A DNA stretch of 64,000 nt from an uncultured Flavobacteriaceae bacterium (GTDB lineage: Bacteria > Bacteroidota > Bacteroidia > Flavobacteriales > Flavobacteriaceae): NCBI GenBank assembly GCA_964353005.1, contig CAYGUC010000008.1, positions 17,579-81,578 of the forward strand, read 5' to 3'. A program made the position numbers and the translations under genes. The stretch's first letter is position 1; every line of letters starts with the position of its first letter. Positions 3,677 to 34,240 of this stretch are shown here, in pieces. A model generated the notes under the pieces. The model was not told where the DNA came from and made no database searches. It saw nothing but the letters and a program-made list of their open reading frames with translations.

Positions 3677-3718
3677 AAAGAGATGGATAGATTACATAAA
3701 CATCTAATCCATCTCTTT
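3677..3718 (+). terminator. Candidate stem-loop downstream of the susD-like gene
   Basis: aaagagatggat (3677-3688) pairs perfectly with atccatctcttt (3707-3718). The 18-nt loop is long, so this is a weak terminator call. Confidence 0.4.
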
Positions 3719-3774
3719 TCAACCAAAGCCTTGAAATAATAGAAACAATTAAAAACTATCAAACTCTTGAGAAA

Positions 3775-5688: not shown

Positions 5689-5726
5689 ACATTTATGTTT
5701 GTTTGTTAGAGAGTTGTACTCACAAA

Positions 5727-5767
5727 ATCCTCCCTCAACACTAAGTGTTGAGGGAAGGATTCTTTTT
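5727..5767 (+). terminator. Rho-independent terminator after nagB
   Basis: GC-containing stem atcctccctcaacac / gtgttgagggaaggat with a 3-nt loop, followed by tcttttt. Confidence 0.7.
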
Positions 5768-5840
5768 AAGAATATTTTTCTTCAAACACGTTACAATAAA
5801 AGTTTCTTACATATATAAAGTAATTAATAAACGATAGTTA

Positions 5841-6713
5841 ATGATATTATTTGCAGATAGTGGTTCTACCAAATGTGATTGGGTTCTGGTTACTGAAAAA
5901 GGACAACCAATTTATAAAACAAAAACAGATGGTATAAACCCTATTTTACTTTCTGATAATGCTATTCAAAGTATTGTGCAAAAAGCAGATTTGATACTAC
6001 AAAAAAAACACCTAATAAACGAAGTACATTTTTATGGTGCAGGATGCGGAGAAGTAGAAACTAAAAAAAGAATACAATTAGTATTACAAACTATATTCAA
6101 CAAAGCAAAATTTATAGCTGTTGAAGAAGATATAATAGGAGCTGTAAAAGCTACAACCGAAAAACCTAGCATTGTTTGTATTTTAGGTACGGGGACAAAT
6201 TGTTGCTATTTCGATGGTAAAAAAGTGGTTCAAAAATTTCCAGCTCTTGGATATCTACTAGCAGATGAAGGAAGTGGGAATTACTTTGGAAAAATATTAC
6301 TTAAAGATTACTTTTTGGGCAGAATGCCTATGGACTTAGCAATATTATTTAAAAGTGATTATAAACAAGAACTGGATCACCTTTTGGATAAATTATATAG
6401 TATTGACAATCCTAGTAAGTATTTAGCCTCTTTTGCTCAATTTCTTTTCAAAAACCGTAGAAATAAATACATAGAAGATATTTTACATGAAGGTATCTTA
6501 AAATTTATAAACACATATATTTTTCAATATAAAGAAGAAGTATCTAAATATCCTATACACTTTGTAGGTTCTGTGGCCTATTATTCTCAGGATATTATAC
6601 AAAAATTATTAAATGACAGAGGATATCAGGTAAAGAGTTTTGTTAAAAAACCAATAGATCATTTAGTAATTCGCAACATCAAACATAGAACTCTTCAAAA
6701 ACTAAGTCAGTAA
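5841..6713 (+). CDS. BadF/BadG/BcrA/BcrD-type ATPase, probable N-acetylglucosamine kinase
   Basis: ASKHA-fold phosphate motifs (LFADSGSTKCDW, ILGTGTNCCYFDG, ADEGSGNYFG). Located in a GlcNAc-utilisation context. Confidence 0.75.
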   Translation: MILFADSGSTKCDWVLVTEKGQPIYKTKTDGINPILLSDNAIQSIVQKADLILQKKHLINEVHFYGAGCGEVETKKRIQLVLQTIFNKAKFIAVEEDIIGAVKATTEKPSIVCILGTGTNCCYFDGKKVVQKFPALGYLLADEGSGNYFGKILLKDYFLGRMPMDLAILFKSDYKQELDHLLDKLYSIDNPSKYLASFAQFLFKNRRNKYIEDILHEGILKFINTYIFQYKEEVSKYPIHFVGSVAYYSQDIIQKLLNDRGYQVKSFVKKPIDHLVIRNIKHRTLQKLSQ

Positions 6714-9016
6714 TGAATTTACGAATTATACCAATATTTTTCTTGATTTTAATAAGCTGTAAAAGTCCAGAAAACACTTCCCCTTTAATAGATAAATCTC
6801 TTCATATTACTCCTAAACCACTTAGGGTAAATAAAAAATTAGGAGGATTTGAAATTAATAAAAACACTTCGTTTACGTATACAGAAGAATCCTCTAAGAC
6901 TATTGTAAGTTTTTTTACAGAAAAAATAAAAGAACTAACTGGCCATTCTTTTTCTATTAACACTAATAAGAATGAAAAAAATAGCATTCAATTTATCAAA
7001 GATAGTACGCTTATCTTAAATAAAGAAGAGTACCACCTATCCATATCTACAGAAGGAGTAAAAATAATTGCAAATACTAATCAAGGATTATTTTATGGAA
7101 TGCAAACCTTCATGCAACTTTTGCCTATCTATTCTGATAACAAATCACAAATGCAATTGCCCTTTCAAATTCAGGCTTTGGATATAGAAGATGCCCCTCG
7201 GTTTGGCTGGAGAGGGATGCATCTGGATGTTTCGAGACATTTTTTTTCTATCGATTTTATAAAAAAACAATTAGATGTTTTATCTCTTTTTAAAATAAAT
7301 AAATTTCACTGGCATTTAACAGATGATCAAGGTTGGCGAATAGAAATAAAAAAATATCCTAAACTTACTACAATTGGATCTATACGAAAAAATGAAGATG
7401 GATCTATACACCAAGGATACTATACTCAAGAAGAAATAAAAGAAGTTGTACAATATGCAAAAGATCGTTTTATAGATGTAGTACCTGAGTTTGATACTCC
7501 TGGTCATGCCGCTGCTATTTTAGCAGCCTATCCAGAACTTTCTTGTAAAGAAGAAAAATATGAAGTACGAAATTTATGGGGTGTAGAATCTAGCATACTA
7601 TGTCCTACAAAAAAAGAAACATACACCTTTATCGAGGATATTATTAAAGAAATGACAGCTCTTTTTCCTTATGAATACTATCATATGGGTGGTGATGAAG
7701 TCCCAAAAGACCAATGGAAAAACTCTACAGAGTGTCAAGAATTGATGAAAAAAGAAGGATTAAAAGATGAAAAAGAGCTTCAAAGCTATTTTATGGCTCG
7801 GGTAGAAAAAATCTTGTCAAAATATCAAAAAAAGATGATTGGTTGGGATGAGATTTTAGAAGGTGGCATCACTCCTACTACAAGTATTATGTCCTGGCAA
7901 GGGGAAGAAGGAGGAATTAATGCTGCCAATAAAGGTCATGATGTTATTATGAATCCCTCACAATACTGCTATTTTAACTTTTATCAAGGGGATTCTAAAG
8001 CAGAACCATTAGCTTTTGGAGGATATATTCCTTTAGAAAAAGTATATACTTATGATCCTATACCTAAAGAAATTGAAGAAGATAAGAAAAAACATATTCT
8101 GGGAGCACAAGGAAATATATGGACAGAATATACTTATGAAGAAGAAACAATAGAATATTTACTATACCCTCGTATCCTGGCTTTAGCCGAGATTACATGG
8201 ACTGCAACAGAGAATAAAAGCTTTGACGATTTTCTAAATAGATTGAACAGTATCTATGAGGTATTAGATCACTATGCAATTAATTATCATATACCACTAC
8301 CCGAAGGTCCTACTTCTAACAAAATGGTATTTATAGATAGTATTGCTGTACCATTTACCACAACACACCCTATAAAAATGGTATATACTACAGATGGTAC
8401 AGATCCTACTATAACTAGTACAGTGTATGAAAAACCATTACATTTTACAGAAACAACCGATTTACGAATAGCTTCTGTATTACAAAATGGTAAGATGAGT
8501 ACTATTAGAAAAATAAAAATAACAAAAGAAAAAGCCATCCCTCCTGCTACTGTAAAAAAACTATCTAAAGGATTGATCTTAAAAGAAACTAAAGGGTATT
8601 TCAAAAGTATGGAAGATGTTCCAAATGATACTAAAGTCAATACTTCTGTCGTTAAAACCATTGAGGATTCGAATATCACATATCACTGGGGACATGAAGT
8701 GAAAAGAGACAACTTTAAAGCGGTCATTCTAAATGGGTATTTAGAAATCCCAGAGGATGGTGTATACTATTTTTCTAGTCGCCAAGATCAGGTATGGATA
8801 GCAGATCAATTAATCATTGATTATAAAGAAGAATTAAAAAAACATCCAAAAGAAAATTCAATAGCCTTACAAAAAGGAAAACATAAACTTAAAATTATAT
8901 ACTTAAACAATATTGCAAAAGGCTGGGCTACCGATTGGAATACTGTGGAATTAAAATATAGAAAAGCATCTGAAGTCGATTATCATACCGTAGATGAAAA
9001 TATGATTTTTCATTAA
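6713..9016 (+). CDS. GH20 beta-N-acetylhexosaminidase with a C-terminal PA14-like domain
   Basis: GH20 catalytic motifs (RGMHLDVSRHF, FHWHLTDDQGWR, HMGGDEV). Lipoprotein-type signal (LILISCKS). The start overlaps the stop of the preceding gene. Confidence 0.9.
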   Translation: MNLRIIPIFFLILISCKSPENTSPLIDKSLHITPKPLRVNKKLGGFEINKNTSFTYTEESSKTIVSFFTEKIKELTGHSFSINTNKNEKNSIQFIKDSTLILNKEEYHLSISTEGVKIIANTNQGLFYGMQTFMQLLPIYSDNKSQMQLPFQIQALDIEDAPRFGWRGMHLDVSRHFFSIDFIKKQLDVLSLFKINKFHWHLTDDQGWRIEIKKYPKLTTIGSIRKNEDGSIHQGYYTQEEIKEVVQYAKDRFIDVVPEFDTPGHAAAILAAYPELSCKEEKYEVRNLWGVESSILCPTKKETYTFIEDIIKEMTALFPYEYYHMGGDEVPKDQWKNSTECQELMKKEGLKDEKELQSYFMARVEKILSKYQKKMIGWDEILEGGITPTTSIMSWQGEEGGINAANKGHDVIMNPSQYCYFNFYQGDSKAEPLAFGGYIPLEKVYTYDPIPKEIEEDKKKHILGAQGNIWTEYTYEEETIEYLLYPRILALAEITWTATENKSFDDFLNRLNSIYEVLDHYAINYHIPLPEGPTSNKMVFIDSIAVPFTTTHPIKMVYTTDGTDPTITSTVYEKPLHFTETTDLRIASVLQNGKMSTIRKIKITKEKAIPPATVKKLSKGLILKETKGYFKSMEDVPNDTKVNTSVVKTIEDSNITYHWGHEVKRDNFKAVILNGYLEIPEDGVYYFSSRQDQVWIADQLIIDYKEELKKHPKENSIALQKGKHKLKIIYLNNIAKGWATDWNTVELKYRKASEVDYHTVDENMIFH

Positions 9017-9068
9017 CGTATCCTAATTACTTCTTATAACTACACACAAACTCTAAAATTATTTAATT

Positions 9069-10901
9069 ATGAACTTGCTTAAAAAAATAACTGCTGTTAT
9101 TCTATTACAGGTCTGTTTTTTTTCCTGTACTACAGAAAATTTTCTCGAAGAGGAGAATTTAAACACACAAAATGTAGAATCTACCTTTACCGATAAAGCT
9201 GCTTTAACAGAACCTATTATTCTAGGATATTTTCCTTCTTGGTCAGAAAGCTATCCAGTAGAGGGAAAAGGTTCTAAATTAAGAGATATCCCTAAACATG
9301 TTACCCATGTATTTTTAGCATTTGCCAAACCAAATCTTAGATATCAAAAAGGTTCTTTAGATATAACCAATACAGGAATCCAAACTCCTTATGGTGGAGA
9401 TATTTTAAAAGAATCTGTAGCTGCTTTAAAATCAAAAGGCACAAAAGTTATTTTGTCTATAGGTGGGGAAACCTATTGGGGCAGTGATGCTGCTTATGAT
9501 ATCAATTACCAGCAAATTAAAGATTTGGTAGATGATATGGGTTTTGAAGGTATTGATTGGGATTTTGAACCTAATGGCACATTTGCAACCATAGGAAATC
9601 CTGTTAATGTACAACGTTTTATTGATTTCTTTAACAACTCCAGAGCGATCATGCCTAAAGGGCAATACTTATTAGCTTGCGCTCCTGCGGGTGTTGGAGC
9701 ATTAGGAGGTTTAAACAACGACGATCCTTCCTCTCCTTTTGCTTATGGTAAAAGAAATGCTGTAACAGGAGAATCGGATACTAATCTATACAATGCAACC
9801 ACTCCAAATCAAGCAATAAGTCTATATGGCTTTGCTACTACAGGACATATGATACCAGTTATGAAAGCCGTTGGAGATAAAATTGATCTTATTGCTTATC
9901 AAGGATATAACACAGGAGCTGCAAGTAACCGAAAAATAATGTATGATGCTTACAAACATTATTCTGATCAATATGGTTTTTCTATTGCTGCTGGAATTCA
10001 TTATCCTAATGAACCTTGGGGGCCTTATTATGAATATACTTACCAAAATGTAGCAGATCTTTCTGGGCATATCGCTACCAATAATACTACGTATGATGGT
10101 ATTATGATTTGGCAGCTTTTACTTGGTAACAATTCCTCTTCTGCATACGGCTATCTCTACGTTGCAAGTGAAATATTAAGTGGCGTTTCTTCATCACAAG
10201 CAATAGCTAATGCAGAAAATTATCCTCGATCTCCTTACACCGGAGGAGGTGGTGGTAATGGTTCTGGATGTAAAGCTGCTACATGGTCTGCCACCAAGAT
10301 TTATAATACAAACCAAGAAGCTGTTTACAACGGTAAATTATACAAGGCGAAATGGTGGACACAAAATGATAATCCTGCAACCAATTCTGGTGACAGTAAA
10401 CCTTGGGAGTTTGTTAAAGATTGTGATGGTACAGGAGGAGAAAATCAATCTCCAACAGTATCTATTACTTCTCCCACTAATGCCCAAAACATAACCCAGG
10501 GACAAGCCATTACTATAACTGCAAATGCAACCGACACAGATGGAACCATCTCTAAAGTAGAATTCTACCAAGGGAATACTAAGTTAGGAGAAGATGTATC
10601 CAGCCCATATAGTTATACTTGGGCTAATGCTGCTGTTGGAAACTATAGCCTAACCGCAATCGCAACAGATAATGCTAATGCTACATCTACATCTGCTGCT
10701 ATATCTATAACCATTACCACTGGTGGTGGCAACGGAGGATCTTGTACTGGTATCCCAAATTGGGAAGCGTATCCAACTGTGTATAATATCGGGGATCAGG
10801 TAGTATATCAAGGCATTTTATACGAAGCTCAATCCGGACCAATTTGGGTAACTCCTGGTAGTGGTGAGCATTGGTGGAAAACCATAAAAAGTTGTAATTA
10901 A
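9069..10901 (+). CDS. GH18 chitinase with two chitin-binding (CBM5/12-like) modules and an Ig-like module
   Basis: GH18 DxxDxDxE motif (FEGIDWDFE). CBM-type motifs (AVYNGKLYKAKWWTQNDNP and VVYQGILYEAQSGPIWVTPG). An Ig-like segment lies between Gly-rich linkers. Confidence 0.85.
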   Translation: MNLLKKITAVILLQVCFFSCTTENFLEEENLNTQNVESTFTDKAALTEPIILGYFPSWSESYPVEGKGSKLRDIPKHVTHVFLAFAKPNLRYQKGSLDITNTGIQTPYGGDILKESVAALKSKGTKVILSIGGETYWGSDAAYDINYQQIKDLVDDMGFEGIDWDFEPNGTFATIGNPVNVQRFIDFFNNSRAIMPKGQYLLACAPAGVGALGGLNNDDPSSPFAYGKRNAVTGESDTNLYNATTPNQAISLYGFATTGHMIPVMKAVGDKIDLIAYQGYNTGAASNRKIMYDAYKHYSDQYGFSIAAGIHYPNEPWGPYYEYTYQNVADLSGHIATNNTTYDGIMIWQLLLGNNSSSAYGYLYVASEILSGVSSSQAIANAENYPRSPYTGGGGGNGSGCKAATWSATKIYNTNQEAVYNGKLYKAKWWTQNDNPATNSGDSKPWEFVKDCDGTGGENQSPTVSITSPTNAQNITQGQAITITANATDTDGTISKVEFYQGNTKLGEDVSSPYSYTWANAAVGNYSLTAIATDNANATSTSAAISITITTGGGNGGSCTGIPNWEAYPTVYNIGDQVVYQGILYEAQSGPIWVTPGSGEHWWKTIKSCN

Positions 10902-14754: not shown

Positions 14755-16059
14755 ATGGAAGAGACTATTATTTTAGAACAAACAGAAACGTTATATGTGG
14801 GTATCCATACCCACGATGAAGTGGTAGAAAAATTAAAAACAATTTTGAATGACCACCCAGAAATGTGTGTTGCTTTATTAGCTTCTTTAAAAGCTGCTAA
14901 TGACTCTGCAAAAAAGATTTTAAACCCAGACCTTTATCAAGCAATAAATGATGAATTTAAAGGAAATGGTTGGCCAGTAACTATCCCTGCATACTACGAT
15001 TATTTAGATTTATATGTTCGTATAGTACCAAATGAAAGTAATGATCCTAATTATCCTAATGCGTGGAAAAGTAATGGACAACAAAATGGGTATAATCAAA
15101 AAGTATATGACTTGTTATGTCAATTTTATTGGTTAATCGATCAAAAAATACCAGGTACTAATCGCACTATGCAAAGTTTTGAGAGTTTTGCTGCTTGGTT
15201 GGTTGATTTTGCAAAAGCCTGGGGTAGTTTTTTGGATACCGAACCGTCGTTAACCAAAGAGAGTTTACACTCTTTTAAATATGACACTATGTATAATTAT
15301 CCGCTATATGCCGATAATGAAAAAAACTGGCATACTTTTAATAATTTCTTTTACCGCGAGTTTAATAATGCAGATCCAAAAACGGGTATAAGTCCTTTAC
15401 GCCCTATTGCAGAGCCCGATAACAATAAAACTATTGTATCTGCTGCAGATTGTACTTTTAAAGAAAATTATCCTATTGATAAAGATGGTAATGTATTGGA
15501 TGTGGAAGGAGAAAAGACCAAAATCACTTTAAAACACACTCATACTATTGGTACTGTAGATGAGCTTTTGGATAACAGTAGTTATGCAAAAGATTTTTAT
15601 GGCGGAACTTTTATACACTATTTTTTAAGTCCGTTTGATTACCATCGTTTTCATACCTCGGTTAGTGGTAAAGTATTAGAGATAAAGGCTGTACCAGGAA
15701 AAGTATATTTATCGGTTAATGTAACGGATGATGGGCAATGGGATGCTCCTGACAGTGCTACAGATGGATATGAATTTACACAAGCGCGTGGTATTGTAAT
15801 TATGGATGCAGGTGTAGATGTTGGAAAAGTGGCTATTATACCTATCGGGATGTGCCAGGTATCTGGAGTAGATATGTATGAACAACTTAAAGGAAAAACG
15901 GTGCCTAAAGGTCAGGAATTTGGTAAATTTAAGTTTGGAGGTTCAGATATTATCCTGCTTTTTGAGAAAGCTCCTAAGGATTTATATATGTTTAAAGAAG
16001 ATCCGTCTCATAACCCTATTCATTTTCAATATGGGCAAACTGCAGTGTATTGTAAATAA
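14755..16059 (+). CDS. Long-form phosphatidylserine-decarboxylase-family (pyruvoyl-dependent) decarboxylase; substrate unknown
   Basis: The C-terminal proenzyme-cleavage-like motif FKFGGSDIILLFE lies about 40 aa from the C-terminus, which fits a small alpha chain. At 434 aa it is much longer than ordinary bacterial Psd. Confidence 0.65.
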   Translation: MEETIILEQTETLYVGIHTHDEVVEKLKTILNDHPEMCVALLASLKAANDSAKKILNPDLYQAINDEFKGNGWPVTIPAYYDYLDLYVRIVPNESNDPNYPNAWKSNGQQNGYNQKVYDLLCQFYWLIDQKIPGTNRTMQSFESFAAWLVDFAKAWGSFLDTEPSLTKESLHSFKYDTMYNYPLYADNEKNWHTFNNFFYREFNNADPKTGISPLRPIAEPDNNKTIVSAADCTFKENYPIDKDGNVLDVEGEKTKITLKHTHTIGTVDELLDNSSYAKDFYGGTFIHYFLSPFDYHRFHTSVSGKVLEIKAVPGKVYLSVNVTDDGQWDAPDSATDGYEFTQARGIVIMDAGVDVGKVAIIPIGMCQVSGVDMYEQLKGKTVPKGQEFGKFKFGGSDIILLFEKAPKDLYMFKEDPSHNPIHFQYGQTAVYCK

Positions 16060-16080
16060 TAAGTAATACTCTAATAGATA

Positions 16081-16120
16081 AAAAAGCGGTGGATCTGTTA
16101 AAAAGATCTATCGCTTTTTT
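16081..16120 (+). terminator. Rho-independent terminator after the PSD-family gene
   Basis: aaaaagcg..gatct / agatc..cgctttttt imperfect hairpin with a T-run. Confidence 0.6.
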
Positions 16121-16207
16121 ATCTATATTTCTCTTTTATATTTGTTTCTTATCCCCTATTTGAATATCCCAAATTTCCTGAATAGCAATAGGTTTACGGT
16201 TAAACAC

Positions 16208-16690
16208 TTAATTGCCTAATTTACTATATGTAGTGTTATCTTCATTTCTCCAACCAAAAAACTTTATTATTACATGCCAAAAACCATAATATTCTTTTCC
16301 TTTGTTTAACCAGATGTTATATGATTCACCTTCTAAAGTATTTAGTGTTAAAATTTCATATTCGAATTTTCTAATCATTTGGTCTGGCTGAATATGGATA
16401 GCTCTTTCTTTTTCTGAATTCGGAACTGTAAATACTGTTAAAGAATCTATCGATAGAAAGTTTAATTGATCCTTCTTCCAAGCAATCTCTTTAGTTCCAA
16501 TTATTATCCAATTGCCATTAGGGTGCCCATATTTGACAATTGGTAATCCAAAATTTCGATCTACAATAGATTTCTCAAATTCGTTTTTAAAGGATGCTGA
16601 TAATTCATCAAATAATTGAGAATATTTAGATGGAACTCCATAATTCAAAGCTTTTTCAGTAATACTTTTTTTGATTTCTTTGTCAGTCAT
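16208..16690 (-). CDS. Hypothetical protein (160 aa), no recognisable domain
   Basis: Clean ORF in the same orientation as the TssD-lipase island. No motif recognised. Confidence 0.5.
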   Translation of the reverse strand: MTDKEIKKSITEKALNYGVPSKYSQLFDELSASFKNEFEKSIVDRNFGLPIVKYGHPNGNWIIIGTKEIAWKKDQLNFLSIDSLTVFTVPNSEKERAIHIQPDQMIRKFEYEILTLNTLEGESYNIWLNKGKEYYGFWHVIIKFFGWRNEDNTTYSKLGN

Positions 16691-17159
16691 TTAATTGATG
16701 GTAACATTAAATATATAAATTGAAGTGAAACAAGTACCTCAACAAATCGATCTATCTGCACATTTTTATTTCTTGTTAATTTATAAAAGTTTGTACTCCG
16801 CCTTATCAGGTATCCAGCTCTTTTACAAAAAAGGAATTATCTTTTGATTGGTGCTAAATTTTTCTATGATTTTATATATAATGTTAACAAACATATTATT
16901 CACTTTTAATAAGATATTCCAATTATAATTATTCGTTCTATAAAATAATCAGAGTAATCCAAATTTGAATTTAACATTTTGTTTATCATATGTTCAGGCT
17001 GAACAGGTCCTATTGTATTAATTATATCTAAATAATCAACAATAAAATCATTATAGTTACAAGTTTCTTTCAAAGCTACCCAAAATCGTCCGCAACAACT
17101 AACCTTATGACGTGCCAATAGGCCAGGGCTATATGCTTAGTTATTATGCACAATTATTT

Positions 17160-18071
17160 TTAATTCCAAACTTGATAACAAACAAAAGGATAAATATTTA
17201 TATCGGGTTTTATAACTTTTTGAAACTGGACAGAGCCTATGTTTTCCTTATTTAATAATTTGAAATTACCCAAATGCTCTTCTATAGGTCCTGGTAAAAT
17301 TATTCCAACATTTTTGTGTACTGAATAACCCAATTTTAATATAACAAAAAACAAACCTATATGCGAAGGTGAAAGAATTTTATATACACCTTCTTCAAGT
17401 TGGTTCAGATTTTCAGATTTAATTAATGGTTTTAGTTCTTTATGTTTATTAAAAGTCAAATATTCATTAATGTATTTTCCTCCAGGCGAAAAGATATAGG
17501 AATACCCAAAATAATAGAATGCATATAAATAAGCGAATCTTAATAAACCATCATTGATTTTTTCTTCATCTCCAAAATCAAATATGAACTGCACTTGAGA
17601 TTTTTCTTTGCCTTGCATATTTGTTACATTTTTTTTAGCGTAAGGATTTTTAGGATTAGACGTAATATCAATTCGTCTTTTTTCTTTATCTCTCGTTAAC
17701 TTGGTTTTGAATTTATTTGATGAATCGACAGACATTTTGAAATCTAAATCTCCTTCACTCTCTAATGCTGAAAAAGCCTTGAACCATTTGCTCAAATGAC
17801 TATCGTATACTGAACCATTTATATTGTTACATTTTTTACAGGTTAGTAAAATTTGTTTTCCATTTAGTTTTTTAGGGGGAACATCCTCAATTGTAAGAGG
17901 ATTTTCTAGTGTTTGACTTAAGTCTTCTTTGTGAAATGATCTATAACACAAAGGACATATATAAAATTCATTGTCAATTCTTCTCAATTGATTACTATCG
18001 AAGACTGTTGAAAAGTTTTTGGAGAACTCCTCAAATATTTTTAGTCTTTTATTTTCTCCTCTATTTTTCAT
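17160..18071 (-). CDS. Hypothetical protein with an N-terminal CxxC...CxxC zinc-ribbon / degenerate HNH-like motif
   Basis: The segment CPLCYRSF...LTIEDVPPKKLNGKQILLTCKKCNNINGS resembles the CxxC...EHVPP...CxxCN layout of some HNH nucleases, with His replaced by Asp. The C-terminal 200 aa are unassignable. Confidence 0.45.
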   Translation of the reverse strand: MKNRGENKRLKIFEEFSKNFSTVFDSNQLRRIDNEFYICPLCYRSFHKEDLSQTLENPLTIEDVPPKKLNGKQILLTCKKCNNINGSVYDSHLSKWFKAFSALESEGDLDFKMSVDSSNKFKTKLTRDKEKRRIDITSNPKNPYAKKNVTNMQGKEKSQVQFIFDFGDEEKINDGLLRFAYLYAFYYFGYSYIFSPGGKYINEYLTFNKHKELKPLIKSENLNQLEEGVYKILSPSHIGLFFVILKLGYSVHKNVGIILPGPIEEHLGNFKLLNKENIGSVQFQKVIKPDINIYPFVCYQVWN

Positions 18072-18153
18072 TGCTTACAATGCCTGCTATATAATTATGT
18101 AGCCATCCCAATAGGTTAGCTATTAATTATATAGCTTGTTCTAAGTCGTTATT

Positions 18154-18687
18154 TTATTCTTCTATCACTTTTAATATATCCTCTACAGGAATATACATTG
18201 GTTTAGATAAATAAGGTTTAGTTGTATTCATAAAAAACCTATCTTCTATCTTGCATGGGATACATCTTTTTTTAGATAACAATTTTTTAATCTCATTTTT
18301 ACTCAGATACTCATTTTTCTCATTGTAATTTTTACGAAACTTAACCAAAGAGGTATATTTATAAGAACCATTTGGAGTGTTTTTCTCTTTTTTCTCTTTT
18401 AAATATCCCGAAATATTATATTTACTATCAACAACTTCTTTGATTCCGAAATTTTTTTGATCTGTAAATAAACATATAAAATTCGGACTACCACCTTTTT
18501 CTTTTATCAAGCTGTCAATTTGTATGTCTGATGTGAAATGTACTTCGAAAATATCTAAAAAAGGATGTTTTTTGTCAATAGGATTAAATTTTATATAATT
18601 TAAGCTAGCTTGAGGTATATTATGATCTTTTGAACAGGATATTGATGTTAAATAAATAACTGAAAATATTATTAAATATAGTCTCAT
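18154..18687 (-). CDS. Small lipoprotein, candidate immunity protein for the upstream TssD-lipase
   Basis: Lipoprotein signal (YLTSISCSK). Located 13 bp downstream of the effector-like gene on the same strand. Confidence 0.55.
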   Translation of the reverse strand: MRLYLIIFSVIYLTSISCSKDHNIPQASLNYIKFNPIDKKHPFLDIFEVHFTSDIQIDSLIKEKGGSPNFICLFTDQKNFGIKEVVDSKYNISGYLKEKKEKNTPNGSYKYTSLVKFRKNYNEKNEYLSKNEIKKLLSKKRCIPCKIEDRFFMNTTKPYLSKPMYIPVEDILKVIEE

Positions 18688-18700
18688 AAGTGCTAAAGGA

Positions 18701-20107
18701 TTACTTGTTTTCTAAATATTGATTAATAGAAGTCGATAATAAGCTTGAAGGAGAAATAGCTTTTTTAGCAATAATTTCATTGAACATTTCTTTTGCTTGT
18801 CCGTGACTATATTGAGTAGTATGCATTATGTGAGGTTTTTGTTTTCTTGGAAACCATTGCCCTCCAAAATCTGCAATAAAATCATCTTGTTTATAATTTT
18901 TAGGATCGGTATAAATATTGATCCAATAATTTACTTTTGGATTCGGAAAAAGTAAATGAATATCTGAAATTAAAGTAACTCCACTTCCTTCACCAACTGG
19001 ATCAAGGGTAATTAATGTGTCTACAATATAACCTTTTATAGTTAATATCTCGGATAAATGCGCTCCATTCCAACCACCAAGACTATGACCAACAATGTTA
19101 ATTTTAGTTCCATTATTATTGGGTATCACATTTAATACATATTTTTCAATATCATCATTTCCTTTAACCTCATTATACCCTAAATAGTAAGAACTATACT
19201 GCGTATACTGTATTTTGTCTTTAAAGACATCTTCTACATCTTTCATAATTTCCGTTTTCCAATCCGTATAAAACGGTTCTTTATCCCCAGCGCCACCAAT
19301 AAAAAAGGTGACTATTTGTTTGTATGTAGCTTTGGTATTTATATTTGGATTAAGGCTACCTACATGGGCATATATTGTAGCGGTATGTTTTCCTTTGCTT
19401 ACTTGTATAGGTGTTTTTAATATTCCATCATCATACGTACCACCTGTAGTGAGTTTTTGATGTTGCGAGGTATCCTCATCGTCATAATTAACAGACCATT
19501 GTATCTCATTTAGGTCATCTCCTTCTTCATAGTTTTTTAGTGTAGCGTAATAGTAATACTCATGTTTAGGGCTAATATAGTTTATCTTATTCCCTCTTTC
19601 ATCAAATGGACCATTTACATCTGTTACTTTTATTGGGTCATTTTCTTGTTCATTCTCTACAGCTTGATAGGGCATTTGCTCACTAGGAAATACCCAACTC
19701 TCTTGCCAAGGTTTTATCAAAGTTATTCCTTTTACTTCTTGTATAGCTGCAGAGATTGTCATTGTTACTGTCATCGGTTCTTCTCCTATAGCAGTAAATT
19801 TTTCTTTCCAATAGATTAAAGCAGCATCATTAAATTTGTATTCAAAAAGGATGATACCATCAAAATCTCCTTGATAAAATACAATTTTGCCTTCTGTTAA
19901 TGTGCAGAATTCATTTTTTTGACTATGGGTCATCCACCGCAATAGTCTGTCATCATCATAACCAGAAGTAAAGGCCAGGGTAACAAGACCTCCCATTGGT
20001 ATCTCACCACAGCGCCCTGTTTTAGGATTAAAAAATCTATAATATTGTAAATCTGTCCATAATACTTCTCGTTCTGTTCCCAAAACGAATAATTTGGCTT
20101 TGATCAT
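18701..20107 (-). CDS. TssD (Bacteroidetes-type Hcp) N-terminal domain fused to a C-terminal alpha/beta-hydrolase (lipase-like) domain
   Basis: N-terminal residues 1 to about 135 match the Bacteroidetes TssD pattern (KAKLFVLGTEREVL...GEIPMGGLVTLAFTS...LLRWM...GKIVFYQGD...FNDAALI...GEEPMTVTMTISA). The C-terminal part has GGAGD and the nucleophile elbow IVGHSLGGWNGAH. Confidence 0.75.
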   Translation of the reverse strand: MIKAKLFVLGTEREVLWTDLQYYRFFNPKTGRCGEIPMGGLVTLAFTSGYDDDRLLRWMTHSQKNEFCTLTEGKIVFYQGDFDGIILFEYKFNDAALIYWKEKFTAIGEEPMTVTMTISAAIQEVKGITLIKPWQESWVFPSEQMPYQAVENEQENDPIKVTDVNGPFDERGNKINYISPKHEYYYYATLKNYEEGDDLNEIQWSVNYDDEDTSQHQKLTTGGTYDDGILKTPIQVSKGKHTATIYAHVGSLNPNINTKATYKQIVTFFIGGAGDKEPFYTDWKTEIMKDVEDVFKDKIQYTQYSSYYLGYNEVKGNDDIEKYVLNVIPNNNGTKINIVGHSLGGWNGAHLSEILTIKGYIVDTLITLDPVGEGSGVTLISDIHLLFPNPKVNYWINIYTDPKNYKQDDFIADFGGQWFPRKQKPHIMHTTQYSHGQAKEMFNEIIAKKAISPSSLLSTSINQYLENK

Positions 20108-20327
20108 TGGTTAATTTTCAGGTTTTTAAAAGTTAGCATTTGTTATAGTTTAGTTGCTCCAATGGCTTAGAACAACAATACAAAACACACTTACCAACTA
20201 CAATGATTTGTAAATGCATATTACACGTTGACTATTGGTTTTGGTTTAATTTTTATTTAAAAATACTATAATTACTCTAAACGATGATAGTATCTTTTTA
20301 TAAAATAATACGATATATCAAGATTTC

Positions 20328-20615
20328 AATCCATAACCGCAGAGCAAGCTCACGAGGTATGCTTGCGAACGTGAGTTTCTAAAAATTTGGTTTAAAAAAG
20401 CCGTCAAATGGAGTGATTTTTGATAGAAAATTGTATTGCTCTTTCGACAAGCTCAAGATGACAAGGCTTTTGGTTTAAAATTTATTTGTCTTCGATAGTT
20501 CTGCTGAGTTTTGCCGAAGTACAATTTTCTATCAAAAATCACTCTGACTCACGTAAATTTTCTTACACCGAACTCAGGTTCCGAAAATATATTTTGTTTT
20601 TGAGGCAAGTCTCGA
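20328..20615. repeat. Mosaic intergenic repeat element (copy 1) with an internal perfect 25-bp inverted repeat
   Basis: gagtgatttttgatagaaaattgta (20411-20435) is the exact reverse complement of 20520-20544. Modules are shared with 21091-21310, 52171-52240 and 63885-64000. Confidence 0.85.
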
Positions 20616-20654
20616 AGAATTAAACTTCACAATGTGATTAAATATCAGATACAC

Positions 20655-20682
20655 AAAAAGCTACCAAATTAGTAGCTTTTTT
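20655..20682 (-). terminator. Bidirectional-type hairpin terminator downstream of the GlsB-family gene
   Basis: aaaaagctac / gtagcttttt perfect 10-bp stem with a 7-nt loop, flanked by A- and T-runs. Confidence 0.7.
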
Positions 20683-20703
20683 GTATAGTTTGTTATGTTT
20701 TGT

Positions 20704-20952
20704 TTAGCGTTTTTTAAATATCAAATTAATCAAAAACAGGATTAGTATTGCTCCTATAGCACCTGTAAGAATTGCTCCTAGCCAACCAGTACCTAAACTA
20801 ATACCTAATTGCCCTAAAAGCCAGTATCCTACAAAACTACCAACGATTCCAACTATAATATTTCCGATAAGGCCAAGACCTCCACCTTTGTAAATGGTAC
20901 TACCCAGCCAACCGGCTACTGCACCAATAATAATCGTTACAATTATTTCCAT
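20704..20952 (-). CDS. GlsB/YeaQ/YmgE-family small stress membrane protein
   Basis: 82 aa, Gly-rich TM helices (IIGAVAGWLGS..., IVGIVGSFVGYWL). Confidence 0.8.
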   Translation of the reverse strand: MEIIVTIIIGAVAGWLGSTIYKGGGLGLIGNIIVGIVGSFVGYWLLGQLGISLGTGWLGAILTGAIGAILILFLINLIFKKR

Positions 20953-21090
20953 ATTTTTAGTTTTAAATTATTAATAAAGTGTTAATATATTCAAAAATAA
21001 GGACTTATCCTATAAGATTTTTTACTTGCTCAGCTAAATCAACCTTTAAAGCATAAGCTTCTAAAAGTTTTTATTTTCTATTACTGTACT

Positions 21091-21310
21091 AATCCATAAC
21101 CTCGGAGCAAGCTCTATGTCATTAAGTTAAGCTGTATCTTTTTGAGAATTAAATATCTGTAAAAACAAAATACTCCTTTATTTCCATTATGGATTCCAGC
21201 CTACGCTGGAATGACAAAAAAAATATCCTAAACGGAATCGAAAAACTGTAAGCAATGCTGTTTGCAATTACATTTCGATCTCAGCAGAACTATTGAGAAA
21301 CTGCTATGCT
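21091..21310. repeat. Mosaic intergenic repeat element (copy 2)
   Basis: Shares aatccataacc.c.gagcaagctc with 20328. It also carries an inverted copy of the cgatagttctgctgag module (21279-21296 versus 20502-20518) and the hairpin ttccagcctacgctggaa. Confidence 0.75.
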
Positions 21311-21332
21311 ATATAAAAACAGAAGTTATATT

Positions 21333-24300
21333 TTATTGTAATAACTTAAGTCCTTCATTTTTACATAAAAAAAGCGTATATTTTTTATCTTGAATAACAA
21401 TCCTTTCTGCTGCTTTTATTTGTACTCCTTGTAATGCGGCTAATAGTACAGAAAAGCCAGATGTTTCTTTATTTTTGTATAAAAAATATCCTTTATTAGC
21501 GTCATACCGTATGGTTTCTACTTCGGCTTCGTATAAGGAACCTATACCTAATATATCTTCTGTACCATCTTGATTAAAATCTGAGATAACAAAATCTGTA
21601 GTTGGCCCAAATTGTGCTTCTTTAGGCAATGGTTTGATAGTAAAATCTCCTTTGCCATTATTTATTAATAGTAGGGTGCTAAAATTGGTTGCTGTGTAAT
21701 GGGTAGCTTCTCGCAAATCCTGATCTCCATAAATATCTGACAAGGATGCGTTTGCAAATTCTCCGTATGTTTTAAATTTATTTTTTAATAATGGTACTTG
21801 TTCAGAAGAGCACTCTTTTCCTCGTACGGGTAGCAACAATCCTGTTTTAGATTCTTTGCTTAGTATGATATCCAGACTATTGCTATTATCAAAGTCTTTA
21901 GCATAAATATGTAGCGGTTTCTCTTTTTTGGGGTGGTACTTGGTATTTTCTCCTATGTTGCCTAATACATAGTCGGTATCACCATCTTTATCTATATCTG
22001 TAGCTTTTATGGTAAAATACCATCCGGAAGTATGTTGTAATACTTCGCTTTCTTTTTTGGTGAATTTACCATTATTGTTATCCAAAATAGTAATCGGCAT
22101 CCACTCTCCTACTATTAAAAGATCTTCGTCCCCATCCTTATCATAATCTGAAAAAATTGCATCGTTTACCATTTGTAACTCTTCTGTCCCACTAGAAATT
22201 TCTTTAGTTACTTCTATAAACTTTCCAGATTCATTTTTTAAGAAATAAGAAGGATAGGACAATGGGTATTTACCTGGTTGTACGCCACTCCCAACAAAAA
22301 GATCGAGATCCCCATCCTTATCAAAATCGTATACGGTAACGGTTGTAGAAACAGATTTGATATCTGGTAATACTTTACTTTTTGTAAAGTTTCCTTTTCC
22401 GTCATTTTCATAAATCCTGTCTAAAAGCCAGTTGGTATTTTCTTTATCTTCGTAACTACCGCTGGCTACATACAAATCCTGATCTCCATCCTGATCCATA
22501 TCAAAAAATAAAGCCTGATTATCTTCAAACTCTTTATCTTGTTGAAAAACCAGGGTGCTCGAAGCTCTAAAACTTCCATCGTTATTTTGAATATATAAAG
22601 CAGAAGGTGCTCCTTTTGCATTTCCTACAAAAAAATCATCTTTTCCATCGTTATTTACATCTCCTACAACAAGAGCTTTTCCTTTTTCACTTTGTTTTTG
22701 TGGTAGTAATAATTGTAAATTATAATCTTCAAACTCCTGCTCGTTGTTTTTATAATCTATACCAAACTTTGCTGCATCTATAAGCAATGCTGTTCCACTT
22801 TCTTTTTTATCTGTTTTTACGTTTAAATTACTTTCTTTTTCGTGTATCGTGAGTAATTGGTTACTTTCTATATCTTTAAGAGTAGTGGATTTTCCCTGTG
22901 GCCATTCTACCAAAATACTATCTATCGTGGTTATGTTTCCTAATCCAAAATGCAATCGTTGGGTAACCGAGGATTGAAATCCTCTTACCATATACAGATC
23001 TCTGGATTGCTGTGTATCTTTGGTATATACTTTTACATTTGCTCCTATGGCATCAGGGTTTTTATCTCCCCCTAAAAGTTTGATGGATATATAATTGGTA
23101 TCTTCTTGATTATTTTTATAGATACTAGCAGTATCCATTTGGTTGTTCAAAACCAAATCTAAGTCTCCGTCATTATCAAAATCTGCGTAGGCTACTCCAT
23201 TAGAGTTTACTTTTTGCTCTAGTCCCCATTGCTCTGTGACCGAGGCAAAGGTTAGGTCTTTGTTATTCACAAACATCTTATTGTTTAGCTTTGCAGAAGG
23301 CATCATGTGTATAGCTTCTTCTAAAGTTACTTTTTTACGGTTTACGATGTTTGTTTTCATTCTATTTCTAAAATCTTGATTCGAAAGGTCATGTAAAATA
23401 CCATTCGTAACAAAAAGATCGTTATACCCGTCGTTATTAAAGTCTGCCAATACGGGTGCCCAGCTCCAGTCTGTTTTTGCTATTTCTGCCAATTGCCCAA
23501 TTTCGCTATACACTCCATTACCCAGATTAAGTTGCAACATATTAGACATATATTGATGGTGATACCCGGCATCTACCAAAAGATTAAAGTTTTCTGTACT
23601 CATGGTTGCCATATTTTCTTTACTCCTTTTATGATCTTCGGCTGCCATATCCAAAACAATCAAATCTGGCTTTAAATCATTATTTATATCTGCATAGTCG
23701 GATCCCATACTATTAGCTGAAATATGATCTAAAGTATTAAGAATAGTATTCGTAAATGTGCCATCTTGATTATTGATGTATAGAAAATCTGGCTCTAGAA
23801 AATCATTTGCTACGTATATATCTGGCCAATTATCATTATTAAAATCCCCTATAGAGGCACTTAGTCCCCAGGCTTTATTTAAAACCCCTGCTTTTTGAGT
23901 AATATCTATATATTTTCCGTCTTTGTTTTCAAAAAGTTGGTCTGTACTGTTGGGGTGATAATCTGTTTGGATTTTAGGGTCTATCGCAACATTGTTATTA
24001 AAATCTGGTCTGTGGTTCACCAGATAAATATCTATATCTCCATCTTTATCAAAATCTAAATAGTATGCTTGTGTCGAAAACGCAGTAGAAGCCAGCCCAT
24101 ATTGGCTTGCTTGTTCTAAAAAAGTGCCATCCTTTTGATTGATGTATAATTTGTTTTTTCTTTTGGTATCATCCTGTAAAGACCCTGATTTACAAACATA
24201 TATATCTAGCCAACCATCGGCATTGATATCTATAACAGAGACTCCTGTAGACCAGCCATCTGTATCTGTTACTCCTGCTTTTGCAGTAATATCTTCAAAA

Positions 24301-31399: not shown

Positions 31400-33346
31400 T
31401 TATTTAGTCTCTATAAAATTTTGTTCCATAAAATATAATAACTGTTGTATCAGTCTATTCTGTATAGTTTCTTCATCATGCGTTCCTAATTTCTTTTTTA
31501 ACAACTCTATTAAATCATACAAAGTTCTTGGTCTTTTTAAGATATCCAGTAGTAAAGTACTAGATAGATTAAGAGGAAATTCTTCTATATCTTGAAGCCC
31601 TAATCTTAATAAAACAGGGTGTATATCTCTATCGATATACTGATTTTTTATACACATATTTTTATCAAATTTTGGCCATTGCCATTCGCAGTTTATTATT
31701 TTGATATTTTTACTTGTCTGAAATGTATATTTATAAAACAAACTTGGGTCTAGGTTTTTAAATTTAGATAGTTGTTTTATAAAAAAATCATTTTTATGTT
31801 CTCGATAAATGTTATAATTAGAATTCACAAGCATTTCTATAGCAGCACTTTCTAACTTAAAGACATCCTTTGCTATTTTGCTTTTTTCTGCATCTAGTGT
31901 TTTTATAAGGGTTGAAATCTTTCTACCAAAACCACGACTATTAAACCCATACTGTCCATTTTTGTAAATTATATCTACACAAATATTATTACTCTCTAAA
32001 AACCAAACGGTTCGTTTTACATATTTTTCGTAAATATTTTTTTTAAAACACTCCAAAGTCACTTTACTCTCTACAGGAAATTGCTTTTTAGATTTAATTC
32101 TTGGTAGAAGTATCGAGTCTATGTTTTTATCTAATATTTGTAAAAATAAATGTCCTATACCCGAAACACCAACTAACAACGCAGGATCTTGTTTATTTGT
32201 ATACCATCCTGATCCATAAAAACCTGTATCCTTCCTATCCTCTATTACTTTATTTACTAAGTTTTGCACTTCATTTGTTAAGGATTTTTCTCTTAAACCT
32301 CTAGAAGCAGTAAGTAGTAACTCTATCCATGACCCAATACCAGTACTTAAAGTATAATTTGGCTCCTTTATCTCTCTTTTAATATCCGAAATAGTTTTAG
32401 TAATTGCTCTTGTTGCAAAATTTTTATATCTCTTTTTTTTAAGAAACCTGTACGCATTAAGTCTTGATAATCCTATACCAGAATTGCCATGTGCCCAAGT
32501 ATTAACATCTTCTTCATTTTCTAAATAATAAGATAAACCTTGCTCTAAGGATATGCTTTTTATTTTTGGGTTATCAGAAACTTGCATATTAATCCAAGAG
32601 CCCAACGAAGTACTATAATATTCGTCCTCATAAGCAAATGCTTTTTCTGCAATCCATTTTAATTCTGGATAATCCAGAGCCTCTCCTATTTCTAATAAAA
32701 CATGTGCAATACCGCATGCCCCATGCGACATACCAATTAGACTATCTATAGTCTCACTAACATACCCCCATTTTAATCCATATTTTGAAATGCGTGCATT
32801 CTTCAATATTTTTTCTATAAGTATTTTAATTGTTTTTTCTTGGTCGGTATCTTTTGTATAGGTATATAATAATGTTATTACAAATAAATTTCCTGCATTT
32901 CCACTTAATAAATCATCTAATTCTACTTCATTTACAATTCCACTTTTAAGTTCTAAAAACAATGCATTTGCTTTATCTAAATTTAATGAGTTTTCTGTAG
33001 CTTCATATAATTTTACTAAAGCATAGATAACCCCAACTGTTCCTGTATAAAAAGTATAGTACTTAGTAGCGAGTGTTTTTATATGATGAATTGACCAGGA
33101 AATACTTTTTTCTGCGATATGTAAATATTTATCCTCTTTAGTATATTTATATAAGGAAATAAAGAATAAAGAAATTCCGGATACTCCATTATAAATTTCT
33201 TCATTTACTTGACTATAAAGCTCTCCATAAGGTTGCTTATGTAATGTTTCCCAATACAACCCATTTGCATCCTCTTTTGAATTCTTAATTAACTCTTCTG
33301 CTATCCACAATACTTCCTTATATACTATATTTTTTATTTTACGCAT
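31400..33346 (-). CDS. LanC-like (lanthionine synthetase C family) protein with an uncharacterised C-terminal extension of about 230 aa
   Basis: Seven GxxG-type toroid repeats (NGVSGISLF, TGTVGVIYAL, SGNAGNLFV, MSHGACGIAHVL, AHGNSGIGLS, STGIGSWIEL, VGVSGIGHLF). The LanC portion ends near aa 415 of 648. Confidence 0.75.
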   Translation of the reverse strand: MRKIKNIVYKEVLWIAEELIKNSKEDANGLYWETLHKQPYGELYSQVNEEIYNGVSGISLFFISLYKYTKEDKYLHIAEKSISWSIHHIKTLATKYYTFYTGTVGVIYALVKLYEATENSLNLDKANALFLELKSGIVNEVELDDLLSGNAGNLFVITLLYTYTKDTDQEKTIKILIEKILKNARISKYGLKWGYVSETIDSLIGMSHGACGIAHVLLEIGEALDYPELKWIAEKAFAYEDEYYSTSLGSWINMQVSDNPKIKSISLEQGLSYYLENEEDVNTWAHGNSGIGLSRLNAYRFLKKKRYKNFATRAITKTISDIKREIKEPNYTLSTGIGSWIELLLTASRGLREKSLTNEVQNLVNKVIEDRKDTGFYGSGWYTNKQDPALLVGVSGIGHLFLQILDKNIDSILLPRIKSKKQFPVESKVTLECFKKNIYEKYVKRTVWFLESNNICVDIIYKNGQYGFNSRGFGRKISTLIKTLDAEKSKIAKDVFKLESAAIEMLVNSNYNIYREHKNDFFIKQLSKFKNLDPSLFYKYTFQTSKNIKIINCEWQWPKFDKNMCIKNQYIDRDIHPVLLRLGLQDIEEFPLNLSSTLLLDILKRPRTLYDLIELLKKKLGTHDEETIQNRLIQQLLYFMEQNFIETK

Positions 33347-34238
33347 CTAGACTTCTATTTTCTAAACATTTATACAATAAATAAACAAGATAAGCCTCGT
33401 CTGCATTTATGATACCTATACGATTATGTGTTATATGCATAAAACTAGTAGTGATACTCAATTCTACCTTTAAGCTGATTTTTTTTTCTTTGTATCCCTT
33501 ATTTACATTCGCATTTTTTAAAAAATATGTGTTTAACCAAGTATCTTTTTGAAGATTTATTTCAATATCTTTTAAGAATGTAGAGATTACTGGTATCATT
33601 TGTTCTTTGTATACATCAAATTTTTTAGCAAATTCTGAAAGAAAAAATTGCTGCTGCTCTTTTTCTGGTTTAGATACATCATATAAAACAGGAAGCCACT
33701 CTTGTACAAAAAGCTTGCAAGCATTCTTCATTTCCTCAGTACTAAATCTTATACTAACAAAAAAAAGCAAATGCATTTTTATTGCTAATAGAAAGGCTGT
33801 ATTGTCTTTCCAGTTTTTAGAATAGTATGCCAAATTATACAATACAACTTCAGAACTGGATTCAAATTGTTTCTCTGCTTCCTCCATTACATGCACACCA
33901 CCATATCTATTTATCTCAGGAATATAATCCACAAATTGAATAGGATTACATAGATTTTTTTTGTCTTTTATTGTATTTTTTTCTGTAATAGACCAATATA
34001 TTTCGCTTTCTTTTTTCAGTCTTTCTTTCCATTTGTTTTCCTTATCTTTTTCGACTAACAATCTTAGCCTTATATGCGGCCCTCCTTCATTATATCGAAT
34101 AAAAAAGTATTTCGACAAACCTTTTTCTTTTTGCATTTTTTCTATAAAAAGATGAACAAAATCTATAAGAAATTTATTTGCGGATCCTTTATAAAATAAA
34201 TACGCTGAAATCCATATTTGATTACTTGTGTCTATCAT
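33339..34238 (-). CDS. Stand-alone LanB C-terminal (SpaB_C / thiopeptide-type glutamate-elimination) domain protein
   Basis: Signature WISAYLFY...KYFFIRYNEGGPHIRLRL. Size of about 300 aa, with an 8-bp overlap onto the LanC-like gene. Confidence 0.75.
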   Translation of the reverse strand: MIDTSNQIWISAYLFYKGSANKFLIDFVHLFIEKMQKEKGLSKYFFIRYNEGGPHIRLRLLVEKDKENKWKERLKKESEIYWSITEKNTIKDKKNLCNPIQFVDYIPEINRYGGVHVMEEAEKQFESSSEVVLYNLAYYSKNWKDNTAFLLAIKMHLLFFVSIRFSTEEMKNACKLFVQEWLPVLYDVSKPEKEQQQFFLSEFAKKFDVYKEQMIPVISTFLKDIEINLQKDTWLNTYFLKNANVNKGYKEKKISLKVELSITTSFMHITHNRIGIINADEAYLVYLLYKCLENRSLDA

Positions 34239-34240
34239 AA

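Follow-up and report, generated by a model that had tools for sequence, protein, structure and literature searches.

Evolved Hcp proteins, in which a type VI secretion system (T6SS) tube protein carries a C-terminal toxin, have been catalogued, without experiments, in the GA2 loci of gut Bacteroidales, which belong to T6SS subtype iii (T6SS-iii) (Coyne et al., 2016, PMC4714493). In Enterobacteriaceae, the Hcp-ET proteins are antibacterial, and Hcp-ET2 of E. coli is made up of Hcp and a DUF2235/Tle1 phospholipase, according to the account of Ma et al. (2017) in PMC6099711. Here we describe a gene pair in a stretch of 64,000 nucleotides (the window) from an uncultured Flavobacteriaceae bacterium (GenBank assembly GCA_964353005.1, contig CAYGUC010000008.1, positions 17,579 to 81,578). 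The effector gene (18701..20107, minus strand) encodes a protein of 468 amino acids (aa), which is divided into TssD, linker, beta-sandwich and alpha/beta-hydrolase by its open reading frame (ORF), Pfam matches and AlphaFold model. A gene for a 177-aa lipoprotein, the candidate immunity gene (18154..18687, minus strand; assigned by synteny, signal peptide and lipobox), follows after a spacer of 13 bp (18688-18700). Both ORFs have exactly the coordinates given in an earlier reading of the sequence alone (the original prediction), which took them for an evolved-Hcp effector/immunity pair. The pair is very probably an orphan T6SS-iii effector-immunity module, consisting of a TssD-fused hydrolase toxin and a protective lipoprotein. 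The GC content of the window is 31%, which together with the top database matches suggests an Aquimarina-like flavobacterium as the source.

The evolved Hcps of the Bacteroidales GA2 loci have in common with the window protein the T6SS-iii type, the N-terminal PF17642 domain, the C-terminal toxin and the small immunity gene that follows. Their toxins are a DYW deaminase, Ntox43 and unclassified domains encoded inside T6SS loci (PMC4714493), whereas the toxin here is an alpha/beta-hydrolase encoded by an orphan locus of a marine Flavobacteriaceae. The closest functional analogue is Hcp-ET2 as described in PMC6099711, a tube protein fused to a periplasm-acting GxSxG serine hydrolase with a downstream immunity gene. 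It differs in its proteobacterial Hcp (PF05638 type, ~160 aa), its DUF2235 toxin and its unrelated immunity family. The type VI lipase effectors Tle1 to Tle4 and their Tli immunity proteins show the same likeness in the GxSxG alpha/beta-hydrolase with Ser-Asp-His and in the adjacent periplasmic, often lipoprotein, immunity protein; their genes are linked to vgrG or PAAR, as is the hydrolase-lipoprotein cassette in other bacteria. In contrast to Tle1-Tle4, the catalytic domain in the window is much smaller (~200 aa) and has no significant match to a Tle family. TseL of P. aeruginosa was considered as a counterpart and rejected, since it is a different, larger Tle2 enzyme. PAAR-hydrolase-lipoprotein triads of Pseudomonas contain the same toxin family (~40% identity) and the same immunity family (23-33% identity). 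In the proteobacterial PAAR/VgrG-linked loci, the toxin stands by itself as a protein of 242-329 aa that is carried non-covalently on the spike, whereas the window toxin is covalently attached to a tube protein and a beta-sandwich. The vgrG islands of Acinetobacter (PMC6833914) were compared as examples of PAAR/VgrG-linked polymorphic toxin cassettes.

In terms of classification, the window protein belongs to the TssD family and to the evolved-Hcp class; it falls outside Tle1, Tle3 and Tle5 and below the threshold of Lipase_3 (Tle2). The original prediction considered TssD-lipase fusions uncharacterized in Flavobacteriia. This novelty is partial: the hydrolase family is unnamed, but evolved Hcps were catalogued in 2016 (PMC4714493) and relatives are public as TssD.

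The TssD delivery domain

The TssD/Hcp tube-protein domain, i.e., the delivery module, comprises aa 1-135 (19703..20107, minus strand) and is defined by PF17642 and Foldseek. PF17642 spans aa 2-135 (profile positions 3-128 of 128) with E = 4e-19 and 69.2 bits (cut-off 25.8); this match is far beyond chance. A search of PDB sequences with the effector found F. johnsoniae Hcp1 and two Bacteroidales TssD entries. The AlphaFold model of the whole effector (mean predicted local distance difference test score, pLDDT, 82.6) consists of three folded parts and a disordered linker. In a Foldseek search with this model, template modeling (TM) scores of 0.84-0.87 and E values of 1e-11 to 1e-9 were obtained against the Hcp of 8gra (an Hcp-VgrG-PAAR cargo delivery complex), 7yw0 (B. 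fragilis Hcp5) and 6bdc (F. johnsoniae Hcp1). Tube proteins of extracellular contractile injection systems (eCIS) were weaker matches of the TssD domain (TM ~0.46-0.57). Profile search and fold prediction had been set beforehand as the test of the proposed TssD identity of the first ~135 aa, and the N-terminus does model as Hcp. Most of the conserved sequence blocks on which the original prediction relied are present: WM at residues 58-59, GKIVFY at 73-78, FNDA at 92-95 and GEEPMTVTMTISA at 108-120. The first block had been mis-registered and reads G-E-I-P-M-G-G-L-V-T-L, i.e., G..P.GG...L rather than G.P..GG..L. The Hcp domain is followed by an extension of 333 aa (linker, beta-sandwich and hydrolase), and proteins with an extension of more than 60 aa that forms a toxin domain are counted as evolved Hcps, so that the evolved-Hcp reading is upheld. 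NCBIfam gave no match for the effector or the lipoprotein.

An exhaustive HMMER search found that all complete relatives of the TssD domain at E ≤ 1e-10 are extended proteins of 155-697 aa. The tube-sized TssDs in this search (126-136 aa) share at most 34% identity with the window TssD domain. By sequence, the window domain thus seems to be part of a carrier clade of extended TssDs. In Proteobacteria, specialized and core Hcps were reported not to be phylogenetically separate (PMC8262886); unlike this mixing, the complete close relatives of the window TssD are all extended. The domain would be expected to assemble into a hexamer or tube and to be secreted by a T6SS.

The linker, beta-sandwich and alpha/beta-hydrolase

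The flexible linker (aa 136-155; 19643..19702, minus strand) is a candidate recombination joint of the delivery and toxin modules, as judged from pLDDT and from the breakpoints of similarity. In the whole-protein model, pLDDT is below 50 at residues 136-154. Residues 156-468 were modeled separately with 77 homologs (pLDDT 95, predicted TM score 0.92). This model shows an eight-stranded beta-sandwich (156-263) packed against a compact alpha/beta-hydrolase (264-468). The beta-sandwich (19319..19642, minus strand) has all-beta secondary structure in the model at pLDDT above 88 and no Pfam match, and its role is unassigned. It accompanies the hydrolase in Bacteroidota, including unfused proteins of ~350 aa, and is missing in the 242-aa Pseudomonas versions.

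The putative toxin domain (aa 264-468; 18704..19318, minus strand) was delimited by conserved residues, the elbow in the model and the Pseudomonas homologs. The predicted nucleophile Ser342 (codon 19082-19084) lies in GHSLGG (residues 340-345), and the other predicted triad residues are Asp369 (codon 19001-19003) and His435 (codon 18803-18805). A GGAGD loop is found at residues 271-275. In the model, strand 334-341 leads to Ser342 and helix 343-357, strand 361-368 leads to Asp369, and strand 427-431 precedes His435. In alignments of 18 and 77 sequences, Ser342, Asp369, GGAGD, GHSxGGWN and LDP are invariant, with His435 conserved at more than 90%. The confident model and the conserved Ser-Asp-His residues bear out the assignment of the C-terminal ~200 aa to the alpha/beta-hydrolases with a GHSLGG elbow. 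On the basis of the model, the fold class is secure and the catalytic triad is predicted.

The lipoprotein partner

The 177-aa ORF does encode a lipoprotein, as the original prediction had it, with a signal peptide and lipobox Cys18 (codon 18634-18636). Cys18 is kept in all homologs. Besides this lipobox Cys, Cys72 and Cys145 are invariant in the family, and the signal peptide is followed by the family motif C-[AS]-K-D-H-x-x-P-x-A-x-L. The two invariant Cys suggest a disulfide in an oxidizing periplasm, the predicted location of the protein. A census of 80 loci was carried out by tblastn and then with a local hidden Markov model of the 177-aa protein. In 75-76 of the 80 loci (~95%), in two phyla and from Aquimarina to Pseudomonas, the hydrolase gene is directly followed by one for a lipoprotein homolog. 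Two to three tandem copies occur in 10 of the lipoprotein-bearing loci, and the Bacteroidales version of the hydrolase is followed by a weak lipoprotein homolog. Sequence identity within the family is 20-47%. The conserved synteny across phyla, the tandem amplification and the fast divergence make up the signature of a cognate immunity gene. The lipoprotein is therefore proposed as the candidate cognate immunity protein, which would neutralize a presumably toxic hydrolase. Predicted to face the periplasm, it would be located in the compartment of presumed toxin action. The effector/immunity reading gains strong comparative support from these syntenic loci, in which the cassette is coupled to TssD, PAAR, DUF4280 or VgrG.

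In two Aquimarina loci, the effector gene is followed by three consecutive lipoprotein paralogs (Aquimarina sp. MAR_2010_214, L086, 11395-13694; A. sediminis, L090, 11377-13095). In L086, a 77-aa ORF stands before the second paralog and another before the third, and just beyond lie genes for an IS1595 transposase and a reverse transcriptase.

Relatives and exchange of delivery modules

Full-length relatives with the same architecture are found in several Aquimarina species (51-73% identity), in Tenacibaculum ovolyticum (36-37%), and in Porphyromonas gulae and gut Bacteroidales (30-33%; P0072 and P0079 are from Bacteroidales). Exact-sequence look-ups of the effector and of P0001, its closest relative, gave no match. 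Taken alone, the hydrolase domain shares ~40% identity with stand-alone proteins of 242-247 aa from dozens of Pseudomonas genomes, and stand-alone versions are also present in Janthinobacterium, Jeongeupia and Acinetobacter. In 57 proteobacterial loci, a PAAR gene (PF05488, E = 1e-16) is the next gene upstream of the hydrolase gene. In Acinetobacter chengduensis, the beginning of the hydrolase gene overlaps with a complete gene for VgrG. The plasmid collection contained no relative of the Acinetobacter hydrolase protein. In Bacteroidota, DUF4280 (PAAR-like) is fused to beta-sandwich and hydrolase in P0011 and P0081, and at locus L006 a beta-sandwich-hydrolase gene is found two genes downstream of one for a DUF4280 protein. 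The couplings to PAAR, VgrG and DUF4280, which are independent of the TssD fusion, mark the hydrolase-lipoprotein cassette as a predicted modular T6SS toxin that follows polymorphic-toxin logic. Public annotations of the relatives include "TssD", "alpha/beta hydrolase", "pimeloyl-ACP methyl ester carboxylesterase", "hypothetical protein" and "Lipoprotein".

Exchange on the other side of the linker is seen in A. muelleri. Effector residues 1-153 are 82% identical to two tandem TssD fusions; these have unrelated C-termini, and a small ORF of its own comes after each. The similarity to P0013 ends at aa 153. P0011 is 58% identical to the effector from about residue 150 to the end (similarity starts at about aa 150-160). 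Because the TssD similarity ends at ~153 and the similarity to the DUF4280 fusion starts at ~150, the joint between the modules lies in the disordered linker.

Two side observations concern these relatives. In gut Bacteroidales (L082-L084, 3441-11900), the TssD-hydrolase and a 169-aa partner are cargo of a small integrative mobilizable element, which carries a tyrosine integrase, HTH_17, AAA_25, a primase and a Mob_Pre relaxase. This TssD-hydrolase is widespread, with index entries in 92 blocks of the assembly collection. In loci from Aureispira, Chitinophaga and A. agarilytica (L007, 2429-4963; L015, 5332-7050; L018, 6728-8602), ORFs of 844, 572 and 624 aa are located directly upstream of unfused beta-sandwich-hydrolase genes and may encode unrecognized adaptors or spike proteins. 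They were examined as divergent VgrG candidates, and searches of Pfam and PDB sequences gave nothing usable.

A probable T6SS in the source genome, and TssC in its relatives

Many Aquimarina genomes encode TssC (PF17541), and three of them also carry orphan TssD-hydrolases (MAR_2010_214, A. sediminis and RZ0). In MAR_2010_214, TssC is on the same 5.98-Mb contig as the orphan TssD-hydrolase. Contigs identical to the window were found in public metagenome runs X1 to X4. Biofilm metagenomes carry the window at depths of 26-309x. A marine tssC reference recruited one long tssC contig, 32.5 kb in X1 and X4, by a single conserved segment of 53 nt alone; the flanks of this segment translate to TssC sequence (YSTLMSQVVA, KSEISELEK). 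The best match in the metagenome tssC scan has 83% protein identity to Aquimarina TssC, and none is closer. Matches to ClpV-like genes in the metagenomes were discarded as uninformative, being due to a generic AAA+ motif. The depths of the effector locus and the tssC contig are 26.2 and 30 in X1, 10.9 and 6.3 in X2, 309 and 298 in X3, 49.2 and 50.1 in X4, and about 21 and 28.7 in X6. The tssC contig therefore tracks the effector locus over a 50-fold range (Pearson correlation on logs 0.97, n = 5 metagenomes). Such matched depths are the differential-coverage signature of one genome. The covariation is good circumstantial evidence, short of proof; from it and from the relatives, the source genome likely encodes a T6SS-iii.

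Proposed mechanism and alternative explanations

We propose that the TssD domain enters the tube, or the tube tip, of a T6SS-iii encoded elsewhere in the genome. The cargo of ~35 kDa is too large for the Hcp lumen, and therefore the fusion would probably contribute one subunit, or a few, to a mixed ring near the spike. Entry of minor and evolved Hcps by way of mixed rings has been discussed for Bacteroides (PMC13213661). Sheath contraction would then carry the tethered beta-sandwich and hydrolase into the periplasm of a neighboring Gram-negative cell. There, the Ser342-Asp369-His435 hydrolase would attack an envelope ester, most probably in membrane phospholipids (esterase/phospholipase activity). 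The periplasm-facing lipoprotein would bind and block the toxin and so shield the producer and its kin. Secretion, toxicity, substrate, neutralization and the accommodation of the cargo are steps that we infer.

Several observations, on enzyme activity and then on deployment, weigh against this reading. Lipase_3 (PF01764) stays below threshold (E = 0.0038; 17.6 bits versus 22) and is matched at the elbow by profile positions 17-74 of 140. Tle1 (DUF2235), Tle3 (DUF3274) and Tle5 (phospholipase D) were unmatched in Pfam at E up to 1. Foldseek of aa 156-468 returned several alpha/beta-hydrolases with probability 1.0 at TM scores of just 0.35-0.5. The structural neighbors are the thioesterase TesA (6fvj), polyketide synthase thioesterases, esterases and hydroxynitrile lyases, and the top 50 fold matches include no Tle structure. 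A search of PDB sequences with the family profile matched the elbow alone, with LIP1 family-3 lipases at E ~0.9. The "Tle-like lipase" of the original prediction thus holds as a GxSxG alpha/beta-hydrolase and not as a member of a Tle family; the label "lipase" is not established, because there is no Tle match and only generic hydrolase folds were found. The same architecture could then deliver a hydrolase that is not a lipase or phospholipase and acts on another periplasm-accessible ester, thioester or amide, e.g., acyl chains of lipoproteins or lipid A, or O-acetyl or stem-peptide-linked groups of peptidoglycan. This would be a new activity class of T6SS toxins. It agrees with the fold neighbors being thioesterases and esterases rather than lipases or Tle enzymes, and with the generic hydrolase and carboxylesterase labels of the relatives in databases. 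Against it, the weak, sub-threshold sequence matches of the domain go to lipase families (Lipase_3, PGAP1, DUF676 and Burkholderia lipases), and it is established that the characterized T6SS alpha/beta-hydrolase toxins with periplasmic lipoprotein immunity are all phospholipases (Tle1-4; e.g., PMC9860674, PMC13133936). We consider a non-lipase activity possible but doubtful. A broader proposal, which we put forward as speculation and think unlikely to hold in full, is that the cassette represents an unrecognized cross-phylum family of non-phospholipase T6SS toxins (a deacylase or thioesterase acting on the envelope) and that its TssD belongs to a carrier clade that never forms the bulk tube and enters as single subunits in mixed rings beneath the spike.

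As to deployment, Pfam scans of all ORFs of at least 120 aa found no T6SS core genes in the 64-kb window. In agreement with this, tblastn with the ClpV, TssB, TssC, TssN, VgrG and neighboring proteins of L095 (a genuine T6SS-iii locus of ~40% GC, not Aquimarina-like) gave the TssD domain as its sole match, and the orphan location is confirmed. Nor are core genes present within 10 kb of the seven TssD-fused or TssD-short relatives examined. The likely T6SS of the source genome is deduced from depth covariation in five metagenomes and from relatives, not from an assembled genome, and the locus was present in no RNA run. In the sister lineage X7 (P0003), Tyr307 is changed to a stop codon (TAC to TAA, window 19187) upstream of Ser342, and the allele has a further six missense versus two synonymous changes; no tssC was recruited in X7, at low run depth. 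The nonsense allele indicates that the effector gene is dispensable and can decay. One might then regard the locus as a stranded remnant, in which the toxin is no longer deployed, for want of a compatible T6SS or through decay, and which is kept mainly because the lipoprotein protects against the same toxin when neighbors fire it (orphan-immunity logic). The TssD-fused relatives examined are all orphans, the immunity gene is almost unchanged in X7, and several genomes have extra immunity copies. We judge this quite unlikely for the window allele: the ORF is unbroken and keeps every invariant catalytic residue, the five samples X1-X5 share one effector sequence, X6 has an intact effector with four synonymous and two missense changes, the depth of the tssC contig co-varies, and related orphan-bearing genomes encode TssC. 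It is very unlikely that the lipoprotein is an accessory (a chaperone, an activator or a mimic of a target-cell receptor) or that the effector is aimed at eukaryotic cells. Some Tle toxins are known to act on eukaryotic membranes as well, and an Enterobacter immunity protein that also activates its Tle has been reported in a preprint (bioRxiv 10.1101/2023.03.28.534661). However, a protein exported by way of Sec and lipobox cannot chaperone a cytoplasmic T6SS substrate, and the one-to-one synteny, the amplification and the divergence described above are those of immunity genes. Export by another route, as a lipase secreted by Sec or the type IX secretion system (T9SS) or as an eCIS tube protein, is highly improbable. 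Flavobacteriia do export many hydrolases through T9SS, and eCIS tubes contain Hcp-like folds. The effector, however, by sequence and Pfam lacks a signal peptide as well as Por_Secre_tail and any other C-terminal domain of T9SS cargo, its best matches in sequence and structure are T6SS-iii TssDs with eCIS proteins scoring lower, and in other loci the toxin cassette is coupled to PAAR and VgrG.

Allele variation and neighboring DNA

Between X7 and the window, the effector-immunity island is ~1% divergent and the flanking core genes are 3-4% divergent. This difference suggests recent exchange of the island. Metagenome assemblies break within the TssD-coding part (window 19692-20272), where the depth reaches 2-3 times the level of the flanks. 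A second contig of 268 bp, ~10% divergent and of genome-like depth, maps to the TssD-coding part, and a 1649-bp contig of genome-like depth matches just 19692-19819. There is probably a second gene with the same TssD module and another C-terminus in the same strain or community.

The intergenic region upstream of the effector gene (20108..20703) contains a mosaic repeat (about 20273-20640) and a terminator-like hairpin of the upstream GlsB-like gene at 20655-20681. The effector-lipoprotein pair's own promoter must lie in this region. A scan for sigma-70 promoters was at chance level (18 sites versus 16.8 expected). The mosaic repeat noticed earlier at 20328-20615 is real and multi-copy. It is present on both sides of the GlsB-like gene (20273-20774 and 21026-21276), and its depth in three metagenomes is 6-12 times that of neighboring single-copy DNA. 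Within it are a perfect 25-nt inverted repeat (20411-20435/20520-20544) and a 24-nt motif at 20328-20351 and 21091-21114, and shorter variants skip 216, 93 or 133 nt. It looks like a mosaic of the miniature inverted-repeat transposable element or repetitive extragenic palindrome type. Rfam had no match in 15900-21400, the repeat included.

Downstream of the pair and outside it, a variable segment of 1281 bp (16789..18069, minus strand) carries ORFs of 303 and 70 aa. The segment is absent from the sister strain, and the X7 contig joins 16788 to 18070. The 303-aa ORF has a weak match to HNH_5 (E = 8e-4, below cut-off) and zinc-ribbon matches; it is possibly a homing or defense gene beside the immunity gene. 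It was considered as part of the module and rejected, being an independent indel that the sister strain lacks.

Two other loci of the window were noted. A lanthipeptide cluster (31400-36958, minus strand) encodes a LanC-like cyclase (648 aa), Lant_dehydr_C (299 aa) and Lant_dehydr_N (905 aa) and is another antagonism locus. A chitin/N-acetylglucosamine utilization locus (50-10901, plus strand) encodes a SusC/SusD pair, a NagB-like/PIG-L fusion, a BadF-type kinase, a GH20 hexosaminidase and an EndoS-like TIM-barrel enzyme with CBM5/12 domains.

Implications

The architecture, the modularity and the immunity logic described here are all established, and no concept of the field is changed by them. 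If the proposed function is correct, the Bacteroidota-type T6SS of marine Flavobacteriia would have its first worked example of a hydrolase toxin fused to a tube protein. These bacteria are dominant on the surfaces of algae and particles, and the related genus Kordia expresses T6SS clusters. The system is suited to the question of how a tube subunit carries a cargo of ~35 kDa, and to the study of gain, exchange and loss of orphan effector-immunity islands. A widespread toxin-immunity family, which rides on PAAR and VgrG in Pseudomonas and Acinetobacter, would also gain a name and a function if the proposal is confirmed.

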